Positions 8,267 through 33,290 of a stretch of 64,000 nt of DNA are shown one piece after another. Under the pieces are notes generated by a model. The model was not told where the DNA came from. It made no database searches and was given only the letters and a program-made list of their open reading frames with translations. Each line of letters begins with the position of its first letter. The first letter of the stretch is position 1. The position numbers were made by a program, and so were the translations under genes. The DNA comes from Neodothiora populina (lineage: Eukaryota): contig NW_027191405.1 in NCBI RefSeq assembly GCF_041146345.1, positions 372,001-436,000 of the forward strand. Direction: 5' to 3'.

Positions 8267-9521
<1,255 letters not shown>

Positions 9522-9789
9522 ATCAATTGCGCCAAAATTGGTGCTGTAATGCATCATGGTATGGCCATCAAGTAGCTGTATAGCTCAGATTGACGAATGT
9601 TTCTTTTCTCCGCAAGTTTCTCCGCTGAATACGGCACGTGATTCCCCGTCCTTGGCAAGCTTCAGCCTTGGCAAGCTTCGCCCACCACATTCATCAGACA
9701 TAGTATTTTGTCCATCTCCCATTGCCTTGCTCCTGTAATACTGCACACTGTATGATGCTGCCTCTGTTGCATTGCCATCGATGAATCAT

Positions 9790-10700
9790 CACTGTCTGTA
9801 TCGTATATCCATTAATATCCCCACTGACTCTGGGCAGTCACTACTGGAGTATCTACCCTGTCGCCTTACAGTACTTTGTATCTCTTCTACCATAACTGGT
9901 CTGTCATCAACAAGCTGCCGCACCCCTGTCACCAATTACTCCGCCATCACCAAATGCCCTCACTGAACGGTTGCCTTTACCCATCTTACCATCGCCGAGT
10001 AAGTATTATGCCTTCACTAAGTATTTGATTCGCCATCGTCCATAATCATTTTCATGTTACCGAGTACCGAATTCGCTCTCATCCTGTACTCATTCTGCTG
10101 TCACCGAGTAAGTGCTTCTTTATCACCGACCAACCTTTTCATCAAGTCCGAGTAACGATTTCGCCCTGGTCAAGTAGTTACTTTGATCTCACTGAATAAT
10201 TGCTTCTCCATCATCAATTATCCATTTTGCCATTGCACCTTTCACCACTTTTCCATCACTGAAAATCACTTTGCCATCAATTTCCAGATATCCAACCGTC
10301 ATTGAATACTCACTCTATGCTTGATTTTCAATTACTCTTCTATTATCATATCTTCTCTCTGCCTTCAATTTCCAAGTTATCTATCATCACGTGATATTCA
10401 TCCTGCTATCAGTTAAGTACTCTATCATCACGGAATATTCATCCCTGCTATCAGTTTTCCATTATTTTGTAATCCCCGAAGATTCATCGAGTTATTGGTT
10501 TTCCAACTACTATACCATCGGCAAACCTTTACCGTGCCATCAGTCTTTATTTTGACTGCCTTCGCTTGTCCTTTATTCTGCCGTCAAATTTCATTTACTC
10601 TGCCATTACGGAATTTTTACTTCGCCATCAATTTTCAATCACTCTGCTATCATCGAACCTTTTCTTTCGTATCAATTCCGAGCACTTTGAAAACAAAAAG
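9790..10700. repeat. Degenerate ~21-23 bp tandem array, consensus roughly TTTGCCATCACCGAGTAANNA
   Basis: Recurring ccatcac/accgagta cores at about 22-bp spacing. Includes a ~41-bp direct duplication at about 10381-10457. Confidence 0.55.
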
Positions 10701-11949
10701 CTATTCGTCCCGCGAGGATCGATCAACAATCTATTTTCACCTGTCAGAAAGACTGTGCTTGCCGAGCATTTATTTCGTATTCACTTTTTCGCTCTGCCTT
10801 CTACCCTATACTGCATCCCCTGTGATTGCATATTAAGCAAACAGCTCCCGAGAGATGTGACAAAATGTTATAACGGCCGCACAGAGTTTTTCTGCGTGTT
10901 TGTCAGTCATTCAACCCCTGAAGAAAGACGAAAGGCAACTGGACAGGCAATGAAGGCGTACTCAAGCAAGCGCCGAAGTACTTAAGGACAAATTGAAGAA
11001 CAATGATAGCAATCAGATCGCTACTTTTACTTCGTGGTATAGCTTGGGCTAATGCGCACAACAAAGAGTGAAGCAGCAGTGAAACGTGAAACGTGAGATG
11101 CAGCCAAGGACTCTACAAGAGAAAGGCTGATTCAATGGAGCCACCAAGATGATTTACTAGCCTCAGTAAGCCCTGTCTTCTACCACGTTCTAAGGCAGGC
11201 GAAAGCTGGGGCCAAACATTCGAAGGTATATCTACGAGTGATCCACCCACACGTGGGTCTGAGCCAATCTATATCCTGTCAACATGACAGCTTTCGACAG
11301 CTCGGCTATATTCACCAGTCTGAAAGATCCTATATATATATATAAGGTTAGTGATGTCGTTTCCTTTACCGATACGTCTCTTTTCTTGTGACGCAATCGG
11401 GCTTTCTGTTTCAATCGCCTACCACCGAATGGGTAGGATGATGGTGGAGGTAGACAGCACAGTCTTCAACAGGAGGCTTATAGCCCTTCTATGACAGCTC
11501 ATCCAGTCAGGAGAGCTTCGTTCCAGCTGGACAATTTTTCGACTTCTATGAAGTGCATGAGATCCACGGAGGGAGAGTTGCAGGATCTCCCCGTATCCAC
11601 GCCTGCCACCGACGATAAGCCGAAGCTAGCTCTGTGGCGAGCTGCCTCGAATGGCATGGCCACCTGAGGAGCAAACGGCGTGGGATGGAACAATTGGACT
11701 GGAATCGGATCTCACCAGTACTATGGAGCGACTTAAAAGCCTCAGATCAATCAGAGCACAAGAAACTTGCAAGTGGACGAGTCATGACGAAGATATCAGT
11801 GCTATGGAAGCACGTCCTGTCTCAAAGCGCGCGCATCATCAGCGCGAGCAAAGACTATGACATCCTCATCGCGAAGAAGGTCGGGGATGATGGTGCATGT
11901 AGTCATTTTTCTGGGGCGCAAAGGGAGGAGGAGACGAGGGCGAGCAATC

Positions 11950-12920
11950 GTGTGGTTGAAATGCATTGAGCTTGTCGATGCCTTCTTGAAATACAGCGTT
12001 GAGCCGCCAGCCCGGATAACTCAGATCAAGACTGGGCTTTCGAATGCGTTGACAAAAAGAAAAAGCCAATGCCCAAGCCGATGCCGCTAACGTCGAGAAT
12101 GCCCCTGGACAAGATGCCAATGGTGCCGCTAAGGCCGATGCTGCTAATGCTACTAAGCAGCCGAAGCCGGACGCCAAGGAGGAGAAACATAAGGCCGGTG
12201 GCAAGAGCGAGGCTCCTAAGGACAAGAACGATAAGGGTAAGGGCAAAGAGGTCAGAGGCAAGAAGTCATCCATTGGCCTGGGCGTCACTTCAACCTTGAC
12301 CAAAACCGAGGCTGGGAGGACCGTTCGAGACAGGATGATCACCGAACAAATCACTCAGTGCCTGTTTGTCAAATTGCTCGAGAAACTCCTGAAGGGAAAA
12401 GACAGCGACGACTTGTTTGTAAAAGGGCTCGCTGAGAACAAAAACGAACTCAGTCACCCTGAGGCTTAGAAGAACGCCGGTGATAAGCCTACAGAGGATG
12501 ATGAAGCCGAGGCTGGAGATGATGACCGGACGCGCGATGCAAGCCTATGCGAGCACGATCACGGCTGCCATCTGTTTGTCGAATTTTTTCTACGAAGGTG
12601 ATGATTGATGCTCTTGTCGCTGCTGGGATGGACCCGACGGAAGTCGGTACGATCTCTAAGCACGACTCGAAATGGTACCTGCTTCGCTTCCGGAAATGGA
12701 GCAGGCCCGCCTAGGAAGAAGTCTCGTGGGTCGCAAAAGAGGTCGGAGAACTTGTGAGCATCGCTGTTGACAAAGGGCCTTGGCCTCCCATGAATACTAT
12801 TACTCTGGAGATGCACCAAGTATTGGAGAAGGAGATCTTCAAAGTGAGAACCCAATCAGGCGGGATTGGGCGAAGCGTTGAAAGAACGCCATCGATGGAG
12901 TCAAGCGAGGTACACGAATG
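11950..12920 (+). pseudogene. Decayed orphan gene with an Ala/Lys/Asp-rich segment followed by globular-looking sequence
   Basis: Long coding-like frame 12053-12466 without a proper start. In-frame TAG stops at about 12467 and 12712, and frame changes at A- and T-runs. Confidence 0.35.
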
Positions 12921-15049
12921 AATTGCAAAGAATGGAAGCACCGAAGCTTAGTGCAATCGACGTCGTATATAAAAATTGTTGTGGCAGGGAAGAATGTAAG
13001 AGGACTACCTTACGACAAGCACTTGATGGCTTCATCTTGTGCTAGAAAAAGCGTTGACACGATCATCGGACAAGATTTCCCAGCAGACCTACGGCCCATT
13101 CACCCTGGCATCTCTATAAAATTACTCTGATGAAGATGAACACCTTCCTCCTGAACGCCAAGGTCCTTCCGCAGGTCTTCGATCCTTACACATCTTATAC
13201 TATGTACTATATACTACCCTCTGGACAGGCGATACCAAGAGATGGACGGTTCCCTAACCCCTTGGCCGACAATGTGAGCGATTCTTCTACGCACATAAGA
13301 AGGAGCATCTTACAACCTAAGTCAGGGGCAGAGAAACGTTTGATAGCAAAGTCCCCCTTTGATGGAAAAACGCACAGATTGGCATCAACCAATCCCATGA
13401 AACAGAGGAGAAAGGTCGATGATTATATAAATACTGGCGCTCGAGATTGTGTAACGTGGACCAGGCTGGCCTAAGTCGGAGCCTGTAACCTTCCTTTCGA
13501 CAGGCTCAGGCTATACGTACCCAGGGTGCCGCAAGCTCACCCAAGTTGCAGAGATTGAGCGGTTCTTTGGGATGCAACAGTGCTATGCTACAACGCGAAG
13601 TTACACCGATTAACTATAAAAGTATCACAAACTTAAGCTATCCCATTATTAAGGGCCTGAAAGATTCACGGCAAAGACCGGAATACCATGGGTATTCTGG
13701 AGGGCCGTAGATCGGCCCCCTGCTTCTCCACCTACCCACCCACACACACACACTCCCAGGGCTCAATCAAGCTGTTCTCCGATACCGCCAACAACTCCTA
13801 TACATTACCGGGCGAAGGCAGGGCGTTATAACACATCATTGTCAATCTTCGAGATTGAAGAAAGATTTGGCTTGTGCCTGCTGGTTGGGTGTGTGAGGAT
13901 CGCCTGAAGAATTGCAACAGTAGCATCCATGCAAGTGCTCGTCAATATCGCTTTCCTAAGGCAACAAAGCGGACATGATTTCGAAGCATCGCACGTGCTC
14001 GGTGGTGTCCTGTGATGGTCAGACTCTGCTGCAGAGTCACAGGTTCAGTGGCGGTTCTGTCAGTAAAGCTGTAGCGCTCAGTGAAAATGAACTCAGAGAG
14101 TGCGTGAGGAGCAAAATGACCAGGCATCCACTCCGTTCAATAAATCGAAGACAGGGATCCCGTGATTGAAGATCTTCTCCTTTTCATCTTTCATCTTCAT
14201 CGTTCGTTTTCGACACGCGCTCCGCCAGCGGGTCTCTTCTTCTCCGTTGTCACTACGCACTATATACACAATCGTAACGCACGATTATGTCTCAAACTTC
14301 CGCTCCCCATTAAAAGCCCCTGTGAAAGTGCGAGTGGTGCTCCGTCAGCAAGCGCGACTGTGTCCCTATGGGGGAGTACTCTGTGCGCGCGTTCAATCGC
14401 TATGTTGTGGCGATTCGTGCCCGCGAACAGTTCGAGGCGGGTCGCGGGGCTAGCGCTGCCGCCATCGGTAGGTTCAGGCTGCTCCGCGACGTTGTTACGC
14501 GCGCAGGAAAGATGCTTATGTCTACATAATGTTATTGGTGGATCTTGCATGAGATTGAAGCGACAATGGGTTTGTGTTGGCTGTATCTTGGTGAGAAATG
14601 AAGGATACTCTGAGTGGAGATTCAGATTACCTCACTCAGCTGTGAGATTGACTTCACTAAGCTCTTCTCCATTGCTTAGACTTTTTCCAAATCAGCAGGT
14701 GACTCCTTCAAAGACAGTAGCATAAGACGTATAGACCCCCAACTTCTTCAGAACGCCACACGAGTTCAAGTCGATGAGTTCAAGTCGATCAATTACTATC
14801 AAGATAGATACTCAGCTAGAAAAATTGCTATTCCATTTCCGAAATCATATCTCTTTGCCTGTGATTCATGAAGTGGACCAATGTATGATCCTTAGATTGC
14901 AGTTCCAGCTTCCATCCTATGTTTGTTTCCAGTGTGGTCACCACAAACCGTACCAGTGTTGCCATTTCGATATCCAGAGTCCACTGTTATCCCCCCACCT
15001 AGCAGCGCTCCGTAAGTTGACCGCTATGATATCTCAGGAATTACCTTAC

Positions 15050-15510
15050 GCACGCAACTACGCCCTCCAATCGATCGACGGGAGCATATGGCGAAGTCAT
15101 GGATATGCTACTACACGGATTCGAGCTCCAATAAGTCTCCGAGGCATGGTCGGCTTGTTCAGCAATAGTAGCTGAGGTAGTACGCCCATGACTCAGACTC
15201 GAAAGATGAGAATATCATGCACGTCAACAGAAGACGTTGTCGACACGCGATCCTTCAGCATCCTCACAGTCCCGTCTGCTGTCGTGATCTCACACCAATA
15301 ATCAGTGCACTCAATCGGCAGGTCTAGGAAGTTGACCACGTCGCTTCAGGCATGCTCCGGATCCGCCGTCAATTAGCACCTCCTAAAGAAAGCCTCTCTG
15401 TCCTCCCGCTCCCGCTCCTGAGGCTCGAGGCGTGCTTCTGTGTAGAAGTTCGAAATGGTTGGGGCTGGGCCCTGCTCCGGGTCCTCATGCCTCTCGATAG
15501 TAAGCTTCAG
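15050..15510 (-). pseudogene. Relic of an F-box-like fungal protein
   Basis: One minus frame reads ...AFFRRC*LTADPEHA*SDVVNFLDLPIEC...*VMGVLPQLLLLNK. FLDLPxE and PxLL motifs are interrupted by several stops. Confidence 0.35.
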
Positions 15511-15711
15511 GGTGTTTCCCGCATGGTCCACCTAATCTCTCTCTGCAGCATAATTCACTGATACGGTTAATGTGAGAGGTGCGGTGGCTGCCTTCCGTGG
15601 AATCTGCATTCCCTTGGCCAGGACTGTGCGCACTTCCGGTGAGCTGTTGACGACGTCCAACAACGTGCAGGCGGGGTTGCTGCGCTGTACCTTGCAAATT
15701 GGCTCGTTTTA

Positions 15712-15902
15712 GTCAATGATCAACCGATGTACAGTGACCAATGTCTACTGAGGAGTCGATGACTCTTGAATGAATGGTTGAAAAGTCTCCGATCAGAGGT
15801 CAATGATTCCTCAATGACTAGATACTCAATGACTACTCGGTGAATGGCGGATGATCCCTCAATGACCAGTCAATGACTACACGGTCAATGATGAATGACT
15901 AG
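15712..15902. repeat. Cluster of TCAATGAY motifs
   Basis: About 8 copies of (g/c)tcaatga(c/t) in 190 bp. Shares an exact 18-mer in inverted orientation with 28858-28875. Confidence 0.6.
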
Positions 15903-17982
15903 AGCCGAGCTCCTTTGTGGATCGGCAGTAGGGAGACACTATCTCGAGGAGCAGTGCGCAGTGTGCAGCGAGCAGTGAGTGGTGGACAAAGCTTTGTGGA
16001 TACTATCGATAGGCAGATCTTCCATAGTCAATTGTTAAGCTGTGGGTTGGCTGACTCAGCATACTGAGCCGGCGTCGCCAAGATTGTATCTCAGACTTCA
16101 CTCCGTGAGTATGTCCCTGGCCTTGTGGCTTAAATAGTGGTTCAAGTACTGGTATAAGGATATAACCATGTCGAGATTTACTCGAAAGGAGATTAGGTCG
16201 TCGCTATGGTTCTTGTTCCTCCAGTCTTCGGAAGTCAAGAGCTCGCGAAGACTTTGACAGAGCTTTTGTGCTCGAAACTCTGCCAGTCGGTCTTCGTCAA
16301 CCTCCCTTTCTCTGCCCGATAGATTTTGCACTCTTGGAGATTGCCGTGTGTAGGACTTCGAAATCATGTTCGAGAGAACTCGTAACATCTTGCTGTGCGT
16401 TGCTGTGTATGCATAGTATTTCTGCCGCAATTTTCTGGACTTTAACCTCTCCATTACTGACAATATCCGTAGGCGATAATCACTCGCTCCAGCTATCGAT
16501 ACTACTCGTCGGTGTCGTCAGAGGTTCATTGCCGTCGTATAGCGGGTGTAAAGCGATGCTTCGTCATGCAATTTCTAGGGGTGTCCTACCGATGTTTGAG
16601 CACGATCTGACGGCTGTTAGGTCATCGAACATCCATCCCTTCCCTGCAGGGTGGAACGAGAGATGCGCGTTGTTTTCCACGGCTCTAGCCAAGTTGCTGC
16701 ATGATATATACGCGCCAATGATGCGACCGAGCCGAGCACGAATGATGGCGACTCTGCAGTCGTGCAGCGTCAATGGCTTGCGATATCAACGACCGGTGGG
16801 CGCGTCGTGATCTCAGTCGTCGACTTCAGTGTGTCGAGCCAGGATCCGCCGGCTGCAAGGGAACCACCAGCTTCCCGTTGACGTGCCTGGTCGTCTTGAG
16901 GGCGTACATGATGAGGCGGTGTCCGAGTGGACGATGACGCAGTTGCGTGCGACGAATGGTTCATGGTCGCTCAAAGCCTCTCGAGAGCCACCGCGCTGAA
17001 TGTATGCCAAACAAGTGATGGTGACTTTGGCGCCATGGTGTGCCAAGTCTGCTGCGCGTAACGAAGAAATGGCAGGTAAGTCAATGTTTCATTTGCAAGG
17101 ATCATGAAGAGGAAGAGAAGAAATCATATACCATCGTCTTGGAAGATCGTCGCAGATCGTGCGATTGTTATGGCGCTTGGCTGCTGCGAATGGTTATTGC
17201 CTTTGGGTATTATGGTGGCTCATCTGTCCCTGCTGGTATAGACACAATTCCCTTGGAGATGATGCGAAGGTGGATGTTATCCCGCTTGACAACAAGTCAA
17301 TGCGTAGAGAGCGTCTGCCGCACAGCGATCGTGGACGGCGCAAATATTTCCCAAGGGTCGATCACCCCCGACGCAGCACGAGTGGTATTCATATAATACA
17401 GAGTTCATGTCATTTTCGTTGCGGCGGCTGGGTGGCGGGATGGCAGAGCGGATGACTTGAACCCCACTTCGCAGCTAACCCGGGTTCACCCCCCAGCAGC
17501 CGCAACAATCTTTAGGGGAGGAGAAAGAGATGTAGTAGTCGGTGCAGGCATAACTACATGGTAAAGCTGCTTGCACAATCGATTTGCGAACTCTGAAGAA
17601 GCATGATGGTACGACGGTTCGGTGATACCGTACCATATGCTTCTTTTTGCTCTTTTGGATGTCGCACACTTGTAGTCGTCGTCGTCGTCGCGATCCAGAG
17701 ACTGACTGGTGATTCAGATTCGACTCGCTCGGTGCCACAGAAGCGCAGAAGTACAGGAACATGAACGCGAACTCAGAGAAAGGAATGAGTGCCCAGCGTA
17801 CATACAGCACGAAGGTATGTCTAATTATACATGGTCATCGGCAGGAGCGTTGCACTGCAACTTCCTTGACAAGGTTGCGAGAAAGGAGACTGCAAGCAAC
17901 GGAGTACAGCTAACCAATTGTTCAAACAATCCAACCTATATATACCCAGATGGTAGGTGGAATGTTACGAATCAGACAAATA

Positions 17983-18107
17983 GTGGCCGTAGTGTAGTGG
18001 CTAGCGCACCTCAAGAACAAGCCCTTCAGTGGGAAGTCCACCTCTGGGTGTCAGTAAGAGGCGGTCTTCATGAGGGGGTCCCTGGGTTCGAATCCCAGGC
18101 GGTCACA
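17983..18107 (+). ncRNA. Non-canonical tRNA-like Pol III gene, copy 1, with a long structured insert in the anticodon arm
   Basis: Acceptor stem GTGGCCG/CGGTCAC plus A. A-box TAGTGTAGTGG, D stem GTGT/GCGC, stem CCTCA/TGAGG, T arm CCTGGG-TTCGAAT-CCCAGG. T5 run at about 18124. Confidence 0.8.
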
Positions 18108-18199
18108 AGATTCTTCTTGCCCCTTTTTGTATCATGGCTAAACCAATCTAACCCTTATATGTTGCGGTTACTGAGGGAGTCTGTACGGATCAAAGTAGA

Positions 18200-18328
18200 G
18201 TGGCCGTGGCGTAGTGGTCAGGGGCACTACTCAGAACAAGTCCTTAAGTGCGAAGTCCACCCGTAGGGGTGTCGGCAAGAGGCTGTTTTCGAGGAGGGAG
18301 TCCTGGGTTCGAGTCCCAAGCGGTCACA
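18200..18328 (+). ncRNA. Non-canonical tRNA-like Pol III gene, copy 2 (diverged tandem paralogue)
   Basis: Same acceptor stem, A-box TGGCGTAGTGG, B-box GGTTCGAGTCC, homologous insert and a T6 terminator at about 18337. Confidence 0.78.
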
Positions 18329-18768
18329 AGATTCGATTTTTTCTTTTTGTATCGTTTTTGTTGTTGGTACTTTGCGATTTCCATCGATGCTGGCTGGGTT
18401 GTATATATCCAATTACCTGCGCTGCATCTCTGGGCATGGAAATCGCGTCTTCTCACATTGCACTGTTTTGCCCCTTACGGGATGGGTGTTCTCATCACTT
18501 CCAGATCCAATGTTATGTCTCTATACACATCTACGCGTGCGCGTCTTGCACTCCTTCACACGTTCTTCAACCTATTCATCACAAGTGGGCGAAGTTCATC
18601 ATTTCCAACCCCTGCGGATGACAACAGGCGATATCACAAATCTCAAAATCCGTCAATTATCGTATACAGCGGCTTTTCTTCAACCCGTGCGATACAAACC
18701 ATGACATTTACGCAGCTTCACTCTCACAATCTCCATCAAACCAATCGCATCCGAATCCGACCCACAAC

Positions 18769-19092
18769 ATGACTCACTTGCGTTACAACCAGAGTCCACC
18801 ACGCCTCGCACATCTGGAGACACACACACAGAGACAACAACGCGACAAAGTCATACCATCCTCCTTTTCCTTCGACCTCCTCCAGGAGCAATTCAAGCGA
18901 CAGAACCGAGTAGACGGTCACATTACAGCCCCTCCCGTCCCATGCCGCTTGGCAAAGTCTCCGATACCAAAAGTCGCATCTCTTGACCCTATTGACGCGC
19001 CTTTGACCCTGAAGTCACGCTTCCTTGACCCCCTGCTCATGATGACAGTAGCTGTGGAAGGCGATATTGACTCTTTCGAGGTGCTGCTCTGA
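18769..19092 (+). CDS. Hypothetical 107-aa orphan protein
   Basis: ATG in good context (cacaacATG) after a C/A-rich leader. No recognisable domain. Confidence 0.2.
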   Translation: MTHLRYNQSPPRLAHLETHTQRQQRDKVIPSSFSFDLLQEQFKRQNRVDGHITAPPVPCRLAKSPIPKVASLDPIDAPLTLKSRFLDPLLMMTVAVEGDIDSFEVLL

Positions 19093-19773
19093 AACGCGCA
19101 TGAGGGTTGTTGTTTCGATTGCTTAAGACACCTTGAGCTGAGGTAGACCTGAGGTAGACCTGAGGTAAGCTTTACGAGGAGGGGGGGGCGGGGGGCGGGG
19201 GCAGGCAGAGGATGGAGATGATAGCTAGGAACTGACTACACTACCTGAGATATACAGATCGTGTTTCGCGGTGAGAAGTAAGTCTTCATCTCTCTCTGAT
19301 TGTTGCTTTACTGGCTGACTTGATGGTTTGGAGGAGCTAGCTATATAGGGTGTCTTATTTTCTCGAGGTACCTCACGGACGAACCACAAATTTACCACAA
19401 GTAAACCACGAGTGAGACAAGCGCAGAGCATGAACAATGTCTGGATGACGCTTTAGCCACGAGCTGAGAGTAAAGAAATCACGAACAAGCGGAGTCCGGA
19501 GCTGGAGTAAAGCAAGAGGTAAGCCAGACCCGATAAGAGGAAAGCAGGAGTCGAGGTTACATTCGGTACTGACATCCGTGGTCCACTCGTGGTCTCTTCC
19601 TACTTGAAAACTACTTCATCATGGTTGGATTCTGGTGTACAAGAGCTGGAGGCTGAAGGAGCGATACGGCCAGAGAGGATGGGGCTGACATGCAGTCACA
19701 AAGGCAGGTTGAGGGTAGGCACGAAGCAGATGATTAGAACGACAAAGTCCCGTAGGGATGCTGATATGAAAGC

Positions 19774-21360
19774 TTAAAGTTTACTCGCCCTCTTCTTCGC
19801 CTTCGCCCAGAGTCCAGCCTCTTCATACCCCTGGGGCACACCATCAAATATATCCCTCTCGACAGCTCTAGCATTGACATGACGCGCATTCAGCTGACCG
19901 ATCTCACCCACGCACAGTAGCCGCATCGCCGTCTCCATTTCGGCCTTGAGGATCTCAAACACGCGTTCTACGCCCGCTGTGCCGCCGGCTCCGAGACCGA
20001 ATAGCGCGTTCCTTCCCATGCCTACGCCCTTCGCGCCCAGAGCCAGGGCTTTGACGATGTCCGTGCCGCGCTTGATGCCGCCGTCGACCCAGAGCTCGAG
20101 GGAGTCGAAGACGTGGGGGCAGAACTTCTTGCACTCGAGCAGTGTGTGGATGGACGGTGGCGACGTGTCTGCCGAGCGGCCGCCGTGGTTCGACAGGATG
20201 ACGGCTTGGATCTGCGGGGCGAAGCGGGCGGCGAGTTCGACGTCTTCGTGGGTCTGTACGCCTTTGAGAACGATGGGGAGGGAGGTCTGCGCTGCTAGCC
20301 AGGGCAGTGTTGTGTGCCATGTTAGGTCGCACGCTGTGCCTGCGAACATGGCTGCTGCTACACTGCCTGATCCTTGCTTTGTAGGGACACTTGCTGCTGT
20401 GGGTGATGGGGTGGTAGTGGAGGATGAGCCTTCTTGTGCGGCGGAACGGACAGGTAAGTTGGCGCCGACGTTCTTGCCTTCTCGTTCGTCGTCCTCGCGC
20501 TTTCCTGGCACAGGGGCGTCGAGGGTCAGAACAATGAATTTGATCTGGGGGATCTTCGAGACGCGGCGGATCATGTCTTCCGATTTCTTGATGTCCATGT
20601 TTACGTATAGTTGCCACCCGAAGATTTGGTCTGGCGCGGCACCGGCGCATATTTGCTCAGGCGTTTGCGAAGCATTATTGGAGATGATCTGGCAGGCGCC
20701 ATATGTCCTACAGGCTTGCGCGATGCCGTGTTCGCCGTCAGGATGACCGAGACGCGCCATTGCTGCTGGAGAGACAAAGAGCGGGATGTTGACTTTGTTG
20801 CCTAGGAGTGTAGAGCTGGTGTCGCATTTGGTGACGTCGTGGAAGACGCGTGGGCGCAGCAGGATGTTTCTGTAGACGGTGTTGTTCAACCGCTTTGAGA
20901 TGAGATCGTCACCAGCGCTGTAGTAGTATGCCCAGGCCTTCTTGCTCATCTTCTGCGTGGCCAGCTTCTCGATGTCGTCCATGTTCAGGCAGTCGTCCAG
21001 CGTCATCAGCGACTCTTCCACGGCTGGGTCATCGGCAGGTGCTTTCTCTACGGCAGGCAGAGTAGACTCGTCTATGGTTCCAATCTTGGCCGAGGCCGGC
21101 AATGCCTCCTCCAGTGTCCCAGGAGGATGTATCGGGTCGTATTCTTCTGTCGCATCTTGACCGGCCAATTGCAGTATGATCCTGCTTCCTCCGGGGTGTT
21201 CGGGGACGAAAGTGGTGACATCGTAGACGTTGCCGTACAGAATCACCCAGCAGGACTCGGCGCTGCGATGTTGCTGGACTGATGTCTGTGAGTTGTGGGC
21301 CAGTCGGACAGAAAAGAAGATCGCCGACTCACCTTCTTCGTATGTGTATACCTTGCCCAT
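19774..21360 (-). CDS. CYB2: Flavocytochrome b2 / FMN-dependent L-2-hydroxyacid dehydrogenase with PTS1; intron 21279-21332
   Basis: Cytochrome b5 domain (VYDVTTF...HPGG). FMN-domain motifs LRPR, SPAAMA, SNHGGR, DGGIKRGTD. C-terminal SKL. Confidence 0.93.
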   Translation of the reverse strand: MGKVYTYEEGESAIFFSVRLAHNSQTSVQQHRSAESCWVILYGNVYDVTTFVPEHPGGSRIILQLAGQDATEEYDPIHPPGTLEEALPASAKIGTIDESTLPAVEKAPADDPAVEESLMTLDDCLNMDDIEKLATQKMSKKAWAYYYSAGDDLISKRLNNTVYRNILLRPRVFHDVTKCDTSSTLLGNKVNIPLFVSPAAMARLGHPDGEHGIAQACRTYGACQIISNNASQTPEQICAGAAPDQIFGWQLYVNMDIKKSEDMIRRVSKIPQIKFIVLTLDAPVPGKREDDEREGKNVGANLPVRSAAQEGSSSTTTPSPTAASVPTKQGSGSVAAAMFAGTACDLTWHTTLPWLAAQTSLPIVLKGVQTHEDVELAARFAPQIQAVILSNHGGRSADTSPPSIHTLLECKKFCPHVFDSLELWVDGGIKRGTDIVKALALGAKGVGMGRNALFGLGAGGTAGVERVFEILKAEMETAMRLLCVGEIGQLNARHVNARAVERDIFDGVPQGYEEAGLWAKAKKRASKL

Positions 21361-27124: not shown

Positions 27125-28554
27125 TCACACCCGCCGAGAAGCACCTGCTAGTCGTCTCCGTCGCTTGCTCTTGACGACAAGCCACACGAACAGCACGGTC
27201 AAGAGAGAAGTCCTGCCGATCACGACCACAGCGATGGCTTTCCTGAGCAAGTCGTAGTAACCGTCCAATAGATTGCCTACAGTGCTGCTCGCGCTCCTCG
27301 TGTCCAGCCCCGAGCCGAGACCGGGCATGCCGACGTCGTAGAGTTTCTTTGGTTGTAGCTCCTGCGACTGTGGAAGAGACTTGTCGCGCGACAGATACCT
27401 GCTCGAATGCATCCTCTTGGGTGAGTCCGCGGCTTCGCTCGTGTTCCTTGGTAGTTGCATCGAGTCGAGACCCTCCTCGGCGGCGGGAACGGCCAACTCC
27501 TCGCCGCCTCCGTTCTCTAGCTCCTTTGACTTGCGCTGCTTGAACCTATACGTCATGGCCCAGATGGCGAATCGCACGTCCAGCGGGGTGAAGGTGGGAT
27601 ATGTCAAAGCTGCAGGGCATTGTTCGGCGGCATCATGTCGAGGAAGTCGGCCATGACGCCCAGAGTCAGACCCCATAGCAACAGCGGCTGGTCTTGCGGG
27701 ACCGAAGCGGCTTTGCGTTGTTTTGCGACAAGGCTGGTGAGGAGAGTGGGCACGTCGAACAGCGTGGTCGCGCTGCTCTTTGCAGAAACCTCCTCTGCCG
27801 GCGACGCCAGACAATGCAAGGACTCGGCGGGGAGCAGGCGGATGGCGGCAAACTCCATGTGGCCCAGCATGGCGCGCAGCATCCATCTCTTGACTCCGGT
27901 CTCCTGGTTTGCCAATCTGTTGGAGACGTCTTCGTAGGACACAGTCCTCTGGGCGGGATCAAGGAGGGCGCGCAGAGGCACCCAGTGGGTGGAAGCGACC
28001 TCGGTAGGTTGTAGTCTGAGAGGGGCAATTTGGGGGTTGGTGAGAAGAAAGACGTAGGGACAGAGGACCATCAGCGGTATGCGTCCCCAAGAGGTCGTCA
28101 CAACCCGCTGCGGCAGATTGCCGACCGGAATGGCGTTCTCGGGCGACAAGTCGATGCCGACCTCCTCGGCCGTTTCTCTCACGGCGGCAGCCTGATCGTC
28201 GGCATCGGTGGGGTCTCGTCTACCGCCAGGCAGGGCGACATGGCTCGTCCAGCGATCGCCTTTTCTCGCAGCGCGCTTGATGAAGAGAATCTCGGCTTCT
28301 CCATGCTTGACCCAGTCCTGAGCGAAGAAGGAGTCGATGTCCTTTTCTGGTGGTGGTGCTGCTGCTGCTGCTGTGGCGGCAGCGTCAGGCCAATGTTCGT
28401 AGTTTGGCTGGCATCTGATGATCAAGGCAACCGAGGCTCGTTTCTTGGTAGACTCGGGGCCTGCGACGTAGGGATATGGATTTTTTGATAGATCGTCGAG
28501 GACATGGCGGAGGCTGTCGAGCAGATGTCGTTGACTCGAGGGGACGGGTGGCAT
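27125..28554 (-). CDS. Nudix hydrolase (CoA-pyrophosphatase-like) with C-terminal TM; 1-bp frameshift at about 27604
   Basis: Nudix box PGGRRDPTDADDQAAAVRETAEEVGI and LWGLTLGV motif. CTT TG ACA TAT CCC lacks one G of an expected LQL-W-TYPTF. Confidence 0.85.
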
Positions 28555-32459: not shown

Positions 32460-33290
32460 TAGTAATGAAGAAGGAATAGTGAAGAGGTAGTAAAAAGGTA
32501 GTGAAGAGGTAGTGGAGAGGTAGTAAAGCAGTAGCAAAGCAGCAGTAAAGAAGTAGTGGAGCAGCATTTGATATCAAACACTTACCTTGAATTGAAATTC
32601 CTTTAAACATGGATTAGTCCTGAGGTTAGACCTAAAATTGCACCTGAGATTGCAATTGAGATAGACCTCAGGCAGACCTGATATTAGAACCTGGAATCGC
32701 ACCTGAGTGTTAGAGGTGTATGCAGGTTGTCCCCCAGTTGACCCTCTGGGTTGGTCCTGGATTCGGACCTCGCAGTCGAACTCCGGGTTGGACCTTCCAA
32801 CTTAGACTCGAGGTCCAACCTAGAGTATAGATACTCTACCTCAGGATCATCCTGAGAGAATGATCACTTTTCTTCTATGTTACAGACCTTTGGGCTCGTG
32901 ACAGTTAGACCCTGATATTAGACCTGAGCATCAGGCCGGAGGCTGGACGTAGAGACGTGAGATTAGTGCTTGAGTTGAACCTGAGATGGGACTTGAAGCA
33001 GAGCTATTAGACATAAGATTCAGGCCTGGGTCTCGAACCTGGGATTGAAGCTAGAGTAGACCTGAGATCGAACCTGAGATTAGACCTTGGGGTAGTACTA
33101 GTGAAGAGGTAGTGAAGTATTAGTGAAGAAGCAGTAAACTGTTAGTGAAGAAGCACTGAGATAATAATAAGGCAATAGTAGAGAAGCAGTAAATAGTAAT
33201 AAAGTAGTAGTGAGGTAGCAGCGAGATAATTATGAAGCAGCTGTAAGAACATAATGAAGTGGCAATAAAGTAGAAGTCAAGTGTTACTTA
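32460..33290. repeat. Composite degenerate minisatellite: GTAGTGAAGAG-type units flanking ~12-bp TTAGACCTGAGA units
   Basis: agtagtgaag/agcagtaaa units at 32460-32570 and 33090-33290. acctgaga units at 32615-33090. Confidence 0.7.

Follow-up and report, generated by a model that had tools for sequence, protein, structure and literature searches.

Tandem tRNA-Val-derived genes with an apparently constrained anticodon-arm insert in the fungus Neodothiora populina: a possible non-decoding tRNA-like RNA

The window analysed here, a stretch of 64,000 nucleotides (nt) of Neodothiora populina DNA (contig NW_027191405.1, positions 372,001 to 436,000, here renumbered from 1), contains on its forward strand two units shaped like transfer RNA (tRNA) and arranged head to tail: copy 1 at 17983-18107 (125 nt) and copy 2 at 18200-18328 (129 nt), with a spacing of 217-221 bp from the first to the second. 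Judged from their sequence, both are RNA polymerase III (Pol III) genes derived from tRNA-Val(AAC), and both are interrupted directly after nt 37 by an insert of about 50 nt. Comparison of the two copies suggests that this insert is under constraint, and the reading tentatively favoured here, at somewhat less than an even chance, is that these old tandem duplicates encode an insert-centred tRNA-like RNA that would not take part in decoding.

The 5' part of copy 1, corresponding to nt 1-37 of a tRNA (17983-18019), was delimited from the sequence, from ARAGORN with introns allowed and from the Val(aac) call obtained after computational removal of the insert. It comprises the 5' strand of the acceptor stem (17983-17989), the A box (17990-18000), the D arm, the 5' strand of the anticodon stem (18009-18013) and the loop bases A32 G33 A34 A35 C36 A37 (18014-18019). 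The insert of 50 nt follows at 18020-18069, and the 3' part (18070-18107) begins with A38, continuing with the 3' strand of the anticodon stem (18071-18075), the variable region (18076-18080), a 6-bp T stem (18081-18086 paired with 18094-18099), the B box (18085-18095), the 3' strand of the acceptor stem (18100-18106) and A73 (18107). Copy 2 is built in the same way: its 5' part (18200-18238) contains the acceptor strand (18200-18206), the A box (18207-18217), a D arm with one G-G mismatch, the 5' strand of the anticodon stem and the loop bases AGAACA (18233-18238). Its insert, in the Val(aac) register, is 51 nt long (18239-18289), and its 3' part (18290-18328) consists of C38, the second anticodon-stem strand, the variable region, a T stem with one C-A mismatch (18302-18307 paired with 18315-18320), the B box (18306-18316) and the acceptor strand, ending on A73 at 18328.

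Both copies combine internal A and B boxes, recognised by their well-known consensus motifs, with a downstream run of T, as is found in type-2 Pol III genes. The B boxes match their motif exactly at 18085 and 18306, two of the eight matches present in the window at no more than one mismatch, and runs of five or six T are placed 10-21 nt 3' of A73 in each copy. The terminator block of copy 1 (18123-18133) has its T5 run at 18124-18128, within an 11-mer that is common to copy 2; there, the terminator (18337-18353) starts with a T6 run (18337-18342) and goes on with the shared, T5-bearing 11-mer (18343-18353). This 11-mer is exact and stands at nearly equal offset in both 3' flanks, a coincidence scored as high by 14 of 2000 shuffles. 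On the other side, local alignment of the flanks revealed a block with a TATA-like run at 17924-17943, about 40-60 nt 5' of the mature 5' end of copy 1, and its homologous counterpart at 18141-18160 for copy 2; the block has the same offset (33-53) in both 5' flanks of 92 nt, with an alignment score reached by 19 of 2000 shuffles, and from its sequence and position it is a candidate Pol III upstream promoter. Two B-box-like matches, at 32759 and 33029, were rejected as tRNA-like genes: both fall inside a long, degenerate CTCAGGTCTAAT-like short-unit repeat (32600-33250, reverse strand) and are chance matches.

When the insert is removed computationally at position 37/38, ARAGORN at its default settings reports a tRNA-Val(aac) of 75 nt for copy 1, and at the default threshold also one of 78 nt for copy 2, the latter in one of two possible stem registers; the other register yields Phe(gaa), and only at a lowered threshold. 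The resulting anticodon loop reads A-G-A-A-C-A-(A/C), with a normal A37 and with G33 in both copies, instead of the U33 that is near-universal in tRNAs. The Val-type reading, G33 and A73, all three proposed in a first-pass annotation of this DNA, therefore hold in both copies, as seen from the ARAGORN calls after computed removal and from the sequence itself. Two further features had gone unmentioned there, namely an acceptor/T stack of 13 bp in both copies and the stem mismatches of copy 2. The stack, one pair longer than the usual 12, can be described either as a 7-bp acceptor stem with a 6-bp T stem, the version read from the sequence, or as an 8-bp acceptor stem with a 5-bp T stem, the version drawn by ARAGORN, and the mismatches comprise, besides the G-G pair of the D stem and the C-A pair of the T stem, an A-G pair in the anticodon stem. 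Neither copy forms the canonical cloverleaf, with acceptor, D, anticodon and T stems of 7, 4, 5 and 5 bp, and neither appears to be an ordinary decoder, because G33 and the additional acceptor/T base pair are present in both.

The same two departures, G33 and the 13-bp stack, are the reason why default detectors miss both copies. ARAGORN in default mode finds no tRNA gene across the 64 kb, and Rfam 15 gives no match at gathering score in the whole window; the Rfam tRNA model remains unmatched even at E<=10 within 17800-18500, where four weak matches to other families occur. Two of these are T-arm matches to the mascRNA family RF01684, with 14.5 and 13.9 bits where the gathering score is 42.5, and membership in that family was rejected. 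If introns are allowed, ARAGORN proposes Lys(ctt) with an intron at 31/32 for copy 1 and, at lowered thresholds only, Arg(tcg) with an intron at 33/34 for copy 2; these calls were discarded, since the copies disagree, the intron places are non-canonical for fungi and nt 37 would be a C.

Column-by-column comparison of the two copies revealed a strongly uneven pattern of divergence. Identity is 8/9 columns in the 5' acceptor strand with nt 8-9, 11/17 in the D arm, 2/7 in the 5' strand of the anticodon stem, 47/59 in the insert stretch (18013-18070 against 18233-18290, that is, the anticodon-loop bases together with the insert), 2/5 in the 3' strand of the anticodon stem, 2/5 in the variable region, 17/19 in the T arm and 8/8 in the 3' acceptor strand with A73. 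The entire acceptor stem with A73 is identical in 16 of 16 positions (alignment columns 1-7 and 121-129). Pooling gives 33/36 for acceptor plus T arm, 6/17 for anticodon stem plus variable region and 50/70 for all exons. The flanks, whose homology was verified by the shared blocks, agree in 31/70 and 14/30 columns, altogether 45/100, which is near saturation.

Against this background the insert (p=2.6e-5), the acceptor plus T arm (p=4e-7) and the unit as a whole (97/129 columns, p=5e-6) are all significantly more alike than the flanks. The insert also exceeds the anticodon stem plus variable region (p=9e-4), although this contrast is overstated, some of the mismatches there being indels that shift a gapless alignment; compared with all exon columns, the difference is not significant (p=0.31). 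The first-pass annotation had stated that the insert stretches align closely and that they are not evolving as a throw-away intron would; both statements agree with the counts, as the insert is at least level with the exons and well above the anticodon stem, the variable region and the flanks. It had also described the insert as at least as conserved as the D arm, and here the proportions go in the stated direction, but the difference lacks significance (p=0.21). In the anticodon stem of copy 2 both strands have changed with pairing kept at 4/5 or 5/6 positions, an observation of little weight, given that a pyrimidine-rich and a purine-rich strand pair easily.

Taken together, these data support constraint on the insert, as far as sequence comparison can reveal it. 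Moreover, since the conserved islands coincide with the Pol III signals, the acceptor/T half and the insert amid near-saturated flanks, the pattern suggests that both genes have retained the capacity to be transcribed, with constraint acting on the top half and on the insert and not on the parts needed by a decoder. In active tRNA genes, a conserved body is reportedly found beside diverged flanks. A neutrally decaying tRNA pseudogene was rejected for the same locus, as its body should diverge like its flanks and does not.

Sequence constraint on the insert is not matched by evidence for a conserved structure. The two inserts had been described in the first-pass annotation as folding into one irregular hairpin, which can indeed be drawn: in copy 2 every one of its 22 proposed pairs is standard, and in copy 1 only A-C, A-G and G-A depart from the standard, which leaves 19. 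Its stability, however, lies within that of dinucleotide shuffles (copy 1, z=-0.84, with 42 of 200 folding as well; copy 2, z=-1.53, with 13 of 200), and the corresponding values for the whole units are z=-1.93 and z=-1.01 for copies 1 and 2, respectively. The insert stretch has ten substituted columns, seven of them paired. Three one-sided wobble changes keep pairing (C-G/U-G, G-U/G-C and U-G/C-G), while the other four substitutions open three pairs in copy 1, and no two-sided change from one standard pair to another occurs among the 22. The accompanying claim that most differences preserve pairing does not survive comparison with chance: when six transitions and four transversions are placed at random on copy 2, at least 19 of the 22 pairs are kept in 20% of 20,000 trials.

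Furthermore, the two copies do not prefer the same fold. With the cloverleaf held, the noted hairpin gives -35.4 kcal/mol in copy 1, against -43.4 for a different insert hairpin and -47.0 for the best constrained fold, so that the alternative is better by 8-12 kcal/mol. In copy 2, the noted hairpin is the best solution (-37.6 to -39.1 kcal/mol), and the alternative of copy 1 does not form (-14.5). That alternative, at 18032-18069, is an 11-bp hairpin (GAAG/CUUC, CC/GG and CCUCU/AGAGG) absent from copy 2, and some of the substitutions by which copy 1 loses pairs of the shared hairpin create pairs of the alternative. Conservation of the insert hairpin is thus not supported, because its energies are within those of shuffles, its pair-keeping is matched by a fifth of random trials and copy 1 prefers another fold; a fold common to both inserts is possible from the modelling. 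An AGUA/GAA pairing of loop-E-like appearance, seen by eye in the copy 1 insert, was dropped, being not kept in copy 2, and inspection by eye showed no C/D-box or k-turn layout.

The position of the insert directly after nt 37 corresponds to that of a pre-tRNA intron. The eukaryotic splicing endonuclease, studied in yeast and Xenopus, requires a pairing of nt 32 with intron base -3 and a 3-nt bulge at the 3' splice site. Copy 1 can form this canonical 37/38 layout, with 18014 paired to 18067 and 18068-18070 bulged, as the first-pass annotation had noted; nevertheless, this register is not its best fold, and the AGAAC/GTCTT helix listed in the same annotation, which leaves a 2-nt bulge, excludes the pair between nt 32 and the antepenultimate insert base. 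In the favoured fold of copy 2, nt 32 pairs with the last intron base because of a run of four T, leaving C18290 alone as a 1-nt bulge, and spliceable geometry is not supported for this copy. On these models copy 1 looks spliceable and copy 2 much less so. An archaeal-type bulge-helix-bulge intron, defined by two 3-nt bulges around a 4-bp helix, was rejected for both: copy 2 has 1-nt bulges around a 5-bp helix, and copy 1 has at best bulges of 3 and 2 nt around five positions, one of them mismatched.

Searches for relatives returned the locus and nothing else that resembles it. No further copy was found within the window by blastn or nhmmer. Contigs with at least 80% likeness to 17880-18160 were sought in two DNA runs: in X1 (65,038 contigs, perhaps the window's own source) only the locus itself was recovered, on an 826-nt contig, in a search of low sensitivity in which copy 2 matched over 33 letters, and in X2 no contig matched. 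A metagenome scan with a pattern for the insert core gave a single locus in high-GC, seemingly coding DNA with no tRNA-like surroundings, which was dismissed as a chance match. A tRNA-derived short interspersed nuclear element, which would have an unrelated body and tail behind its tRNA-related head and many dispersed copies, was also considered and rejected, as each unit ends at A73 followed by the T run and these searches detected no further copy in the window; likewise, no support was obtained for a role in retroelement priming, since a 13-nt complement of the 3' end with CCA added matched only the gene itself, at two mismatches.

The pair overlaps a stop-free frame of 186 codons (17706-18266, forward strand), which spans all of copy 1 and reaches into copy 2 and has no Pfam family. 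A search of its 44-residue stretch over copy 1 with HMMER against 1.84 billion representatives gave one hit, a 3093-residue repeat protein that aligned through many weak pieces of 28 residues and was regarded as spurious; the frame is most likely an accidental one, liable to be mis-annotated by gene callers. Signals resembling those of a spliceosomal intron were seen by eye on the same strand at 17816-17950 (GTATGT at 17816, GCTAAC near 17909 and a CAG whose last base is 17950); there is overlap with the TATA-like block of copy 1, and no coding exon could be attached to these signals.

Among the open reading frames (ORFs) of the window are matches to a cytochrome b2-type FMN dehydrogenase, VTC/SPX, CDC20, a mannosyltransferase, an MFS transporter, GAPDH and others. 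The cytochrome b2 ORF (19774-21360, reverse strand) is 97% identical to a Neodothiora populina protein, its next named relatives being from Delphinella and Aureobasidium (Dothideales). Several of the Aureobasidium relatives are 699-833 residues long and have an additional NUDIX domain; in the window, a NUDIX-domain ORF (27604-28554, reverse strand) is separate from the cytochrome b2 ORF and about 6 kb away, which suggests that the pairing in those relatives reflects either a fusion or mis-joined gene models. A stretch of some 10 kb (9.5-19.8 kb) separates the GAPDH-like ORF (8616-9521) from the cytochrome b2 gene, and the tandem units are located within it. None of 17 ORFs tested in this stretch (9521-19774) has a Pfam family above cut-off, no homologue was found for the ORF at 16268-16810, Rfam gives no match at E<=1 over 9500-19800, and only three small tandem repeats are present. 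Unless it houses lineage-specific or intron-rich genes, the stretch is unusually empty for a compact fungal genome.

In the reading favoured here, that of an insert-centred, non-decoding RNA, all steps of the proposed path are inferred. Transcription by Pol III would start from the A and B boxes, helped by the upstream TATA-like block, and would stop at the T run; the conserved acceptor/T-arm half would serve for trimming and stabilisation through RNase P, RNase Z and the CCA-adding enzyme; the anticodon stem would be a mere connector, free in sequence provided that pairing is kept; and the insert of about 50 nt, carried on a tRNA scaffold, would be the functional part, perhaps binding a protein or serving as the precursor of a smaller RNA. 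According to the folding models the insert is most likely retained in the RNA, because copy 2 keeps its sequence without having the 3-nt bulge in its favoured fold, while release by splicing may occur, at least from copy 1. A more specific proposal, which must be called doubtful on present sequence evidence, is that a Val-tRNA-derived lineage in the Dothideales gave up decoding, keeping the tRNA top half for transcription, end-processing, stability and perhaps export and using a lengthened anticodon arm to present a sequence-constrained domain of some 50 nt; as part of the same proposal of a natural tRNA scaffold, this domain would either be bound by a protein or give rise to a small RNA by cleavage.

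Several considerations weigh against the favoured reading and have to be set beside three rival explanations. The comparison has as its basis two paralogues from one genome; the insert does not differ significantly from the exons taken together, and its contrast with the anticodon stem is inflated by indels; its hairpin is not supported as a conserved structure, copy 1 preferring another fold; and patchy gene conversion could mimic constraint. The last point leads to the doubtful possibility that both units are dead relics of an intron-bearing tRNA-Val gene, partly homogenised by repeated conversion, for which tandem repeats are generally known to be natural substrates. Relics would readily account for G33 and the extra acceptor/T base pair, which both copies have and which ought to be intolerable in a decoder, for the mismatches of copy 2 in its D, anticodon and T stems, for a free minimum-energy fold of copy 2 that is about 10 kcal/mol better than its cloverleaf-enforced fold (a further point against the favoured reading), and for the lack of covariation and of a match to the tRNA model. 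They account less well for flanks that are homologous yet near saturation beside a body identical in 97/129 columns, or for conserved islands (upstream block, A box, insert, B box with acceptor, terminator 11-mer) with fast-changing stretches between them: a single conversion tract would not generate separate islands, several short ones would be needed, and copies with 75% identity over 125 bp would presumably be poor conversion partners today.

Alternatively, the units could be true intron-bearing genes, from which endonuclease and ligase would yield an unusual tRNA-Val(AAC) isodecoder, or whose freed intron would have a function; this is considered unlikely. A proper splicing substrate can be modelled for copy 1, with nt 32 paired to intron base -3 and a 3-nt bulge containing the 3' splice site, and AGAACA (nt 32-37) is kept exactly, followed by the usual A or C at nt 38, as a spliced Val tRNA would also require; both observations speak for splicing and count against the favoured reading. 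The Val(aac) calls after removal at 37/38, in copy 1 and in one of the two registers of copy 2, speak for splicing too. The share of intron-bearing tRNA genes in fungi extends from 3% to 92% (PMC10946435), and free tRNA introns are reported as regulators in yeast (10.1101/2025.11.19.689297). Conversely, the parts needed by a decoder have changed most (6/17 in the anticodon stem plus variable region and 11/17 in the D arm, against 47/59 in the insert), the reverse of what is usual, and G33 and the 13-bp stack are common to both copies. Copy 2, moreover, can take the Phe(gaa) register at the lowered threshold and favours a 1-nt bulge, and when ARAGORN is left to place introns it selects non-canonical places with the discordant identities Lys(ctt) and Arg(tcg). 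A third explanation, judged very unlikely, is that the DNA and not the RNA matters, the units being TFIIIC/Pol III sites, for instance a chromatin boundary between the GAPDH and cytochrome b2 genes, with the transcript as a by-product. Yeast tRNA genes can act as such boundaries, each copy retains its A and B boxes in full, and the pair stands in the stretch of about 10 kb where none of the ORFs tested has a Pfam match above cut-off and one has no homologue; but conservation of the insert, of the acceptor stem with A73 and of the terminator block would be left unexplained.

Pol III genes of tRNA origin whose anticodon loop is interrupted by an insert are of a kind already known, and the present pair differs by its shared oddities and by the apparent constraint on the insert. 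In common with the fungal nuclear intron-containing pre-tRNAs, it has the tRNA-type Pol III organisation with an insert immediately following nt 37, complementarity of the insert's 3' end to the anticodon region and, in copy 1, a possible 3-nt bulge for the 3' splice site, closed by pairing of nt 32 with the insert. Unlike them, it has G33, an additional acceptor/T base pair, a favoured copy 2 fold without the 3-nt bulge and an insert more alike than anticodon stem, variable region and D arm, and it is missed by default ARAGORN and by the Rfam tRNA model. A parallel of another sort is given by the engineered tRNA scaffold, by which foreign RNA domains are expressed in Escherichia coli in place of the anticodon loop, as described in PMC3753655 and PMC3401473. 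An RNA domain at the site of the anticodon loop, on a tRNA body that would confer processing and stability, is common to both; the scaffold, however, is a laboratory design for E. coli, whereas its counterpart here would be a natural fungal Pol III gene, with an insert whose retention and binding function are putative.

In the free tRNA introns of yeast (fitRNAs), as could be the case here, the function lies in the intron sequence and not in the tRNA, which would explain constraint on the insert; fitRNAs derive from normal, essential tRNA genes, whereas the host tRNA of the present inserts is aberrant and their splicing putative. If the proposed reading is right, there is also a likeness to mascRNA and to the bacterial tRNA-like Y RNAs, which are tRNA-shaped, are processed by tRNA enzymes and are not used for decoding; mascRNA, in contrast to the present units, is released from a transcript of Pol II and lacks an insert in the anticodon arm. 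A 13-bp acceptor/T stack is otherwise found in tRNA-Sec and in bacterial allo-tRNAs, with which the two units share the one pair beyond the canonical 7+5; they differ from both in that a long variable arm, a 6-bp D stem and a UCA anticodon are absent, the stack being of 7+6 or 8+5 type on a Val-type body. A description of such a gene was not encountered in the literature searches, by which its absence from print is not shown.

Introns of tRNAs are commonly regarded as disposable, and tRNA-like genes missed by the detectors are as a rule dismissed as pseudogenes. Here the pattern is reversed, with the insert and the acceptor/T half held and the anticodon stem free to change. If the favoured reading is not true, the locus would be an instructive case of tandem tRNA relics that mimic constraint. 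If it is true, Neodothiora populina would possess a natural eukaryotic tRNA body carrying another RNA domain, or a tRNA intron kept for its own sake, and two small genes in a culturable fungus would offer a simple genetic system.

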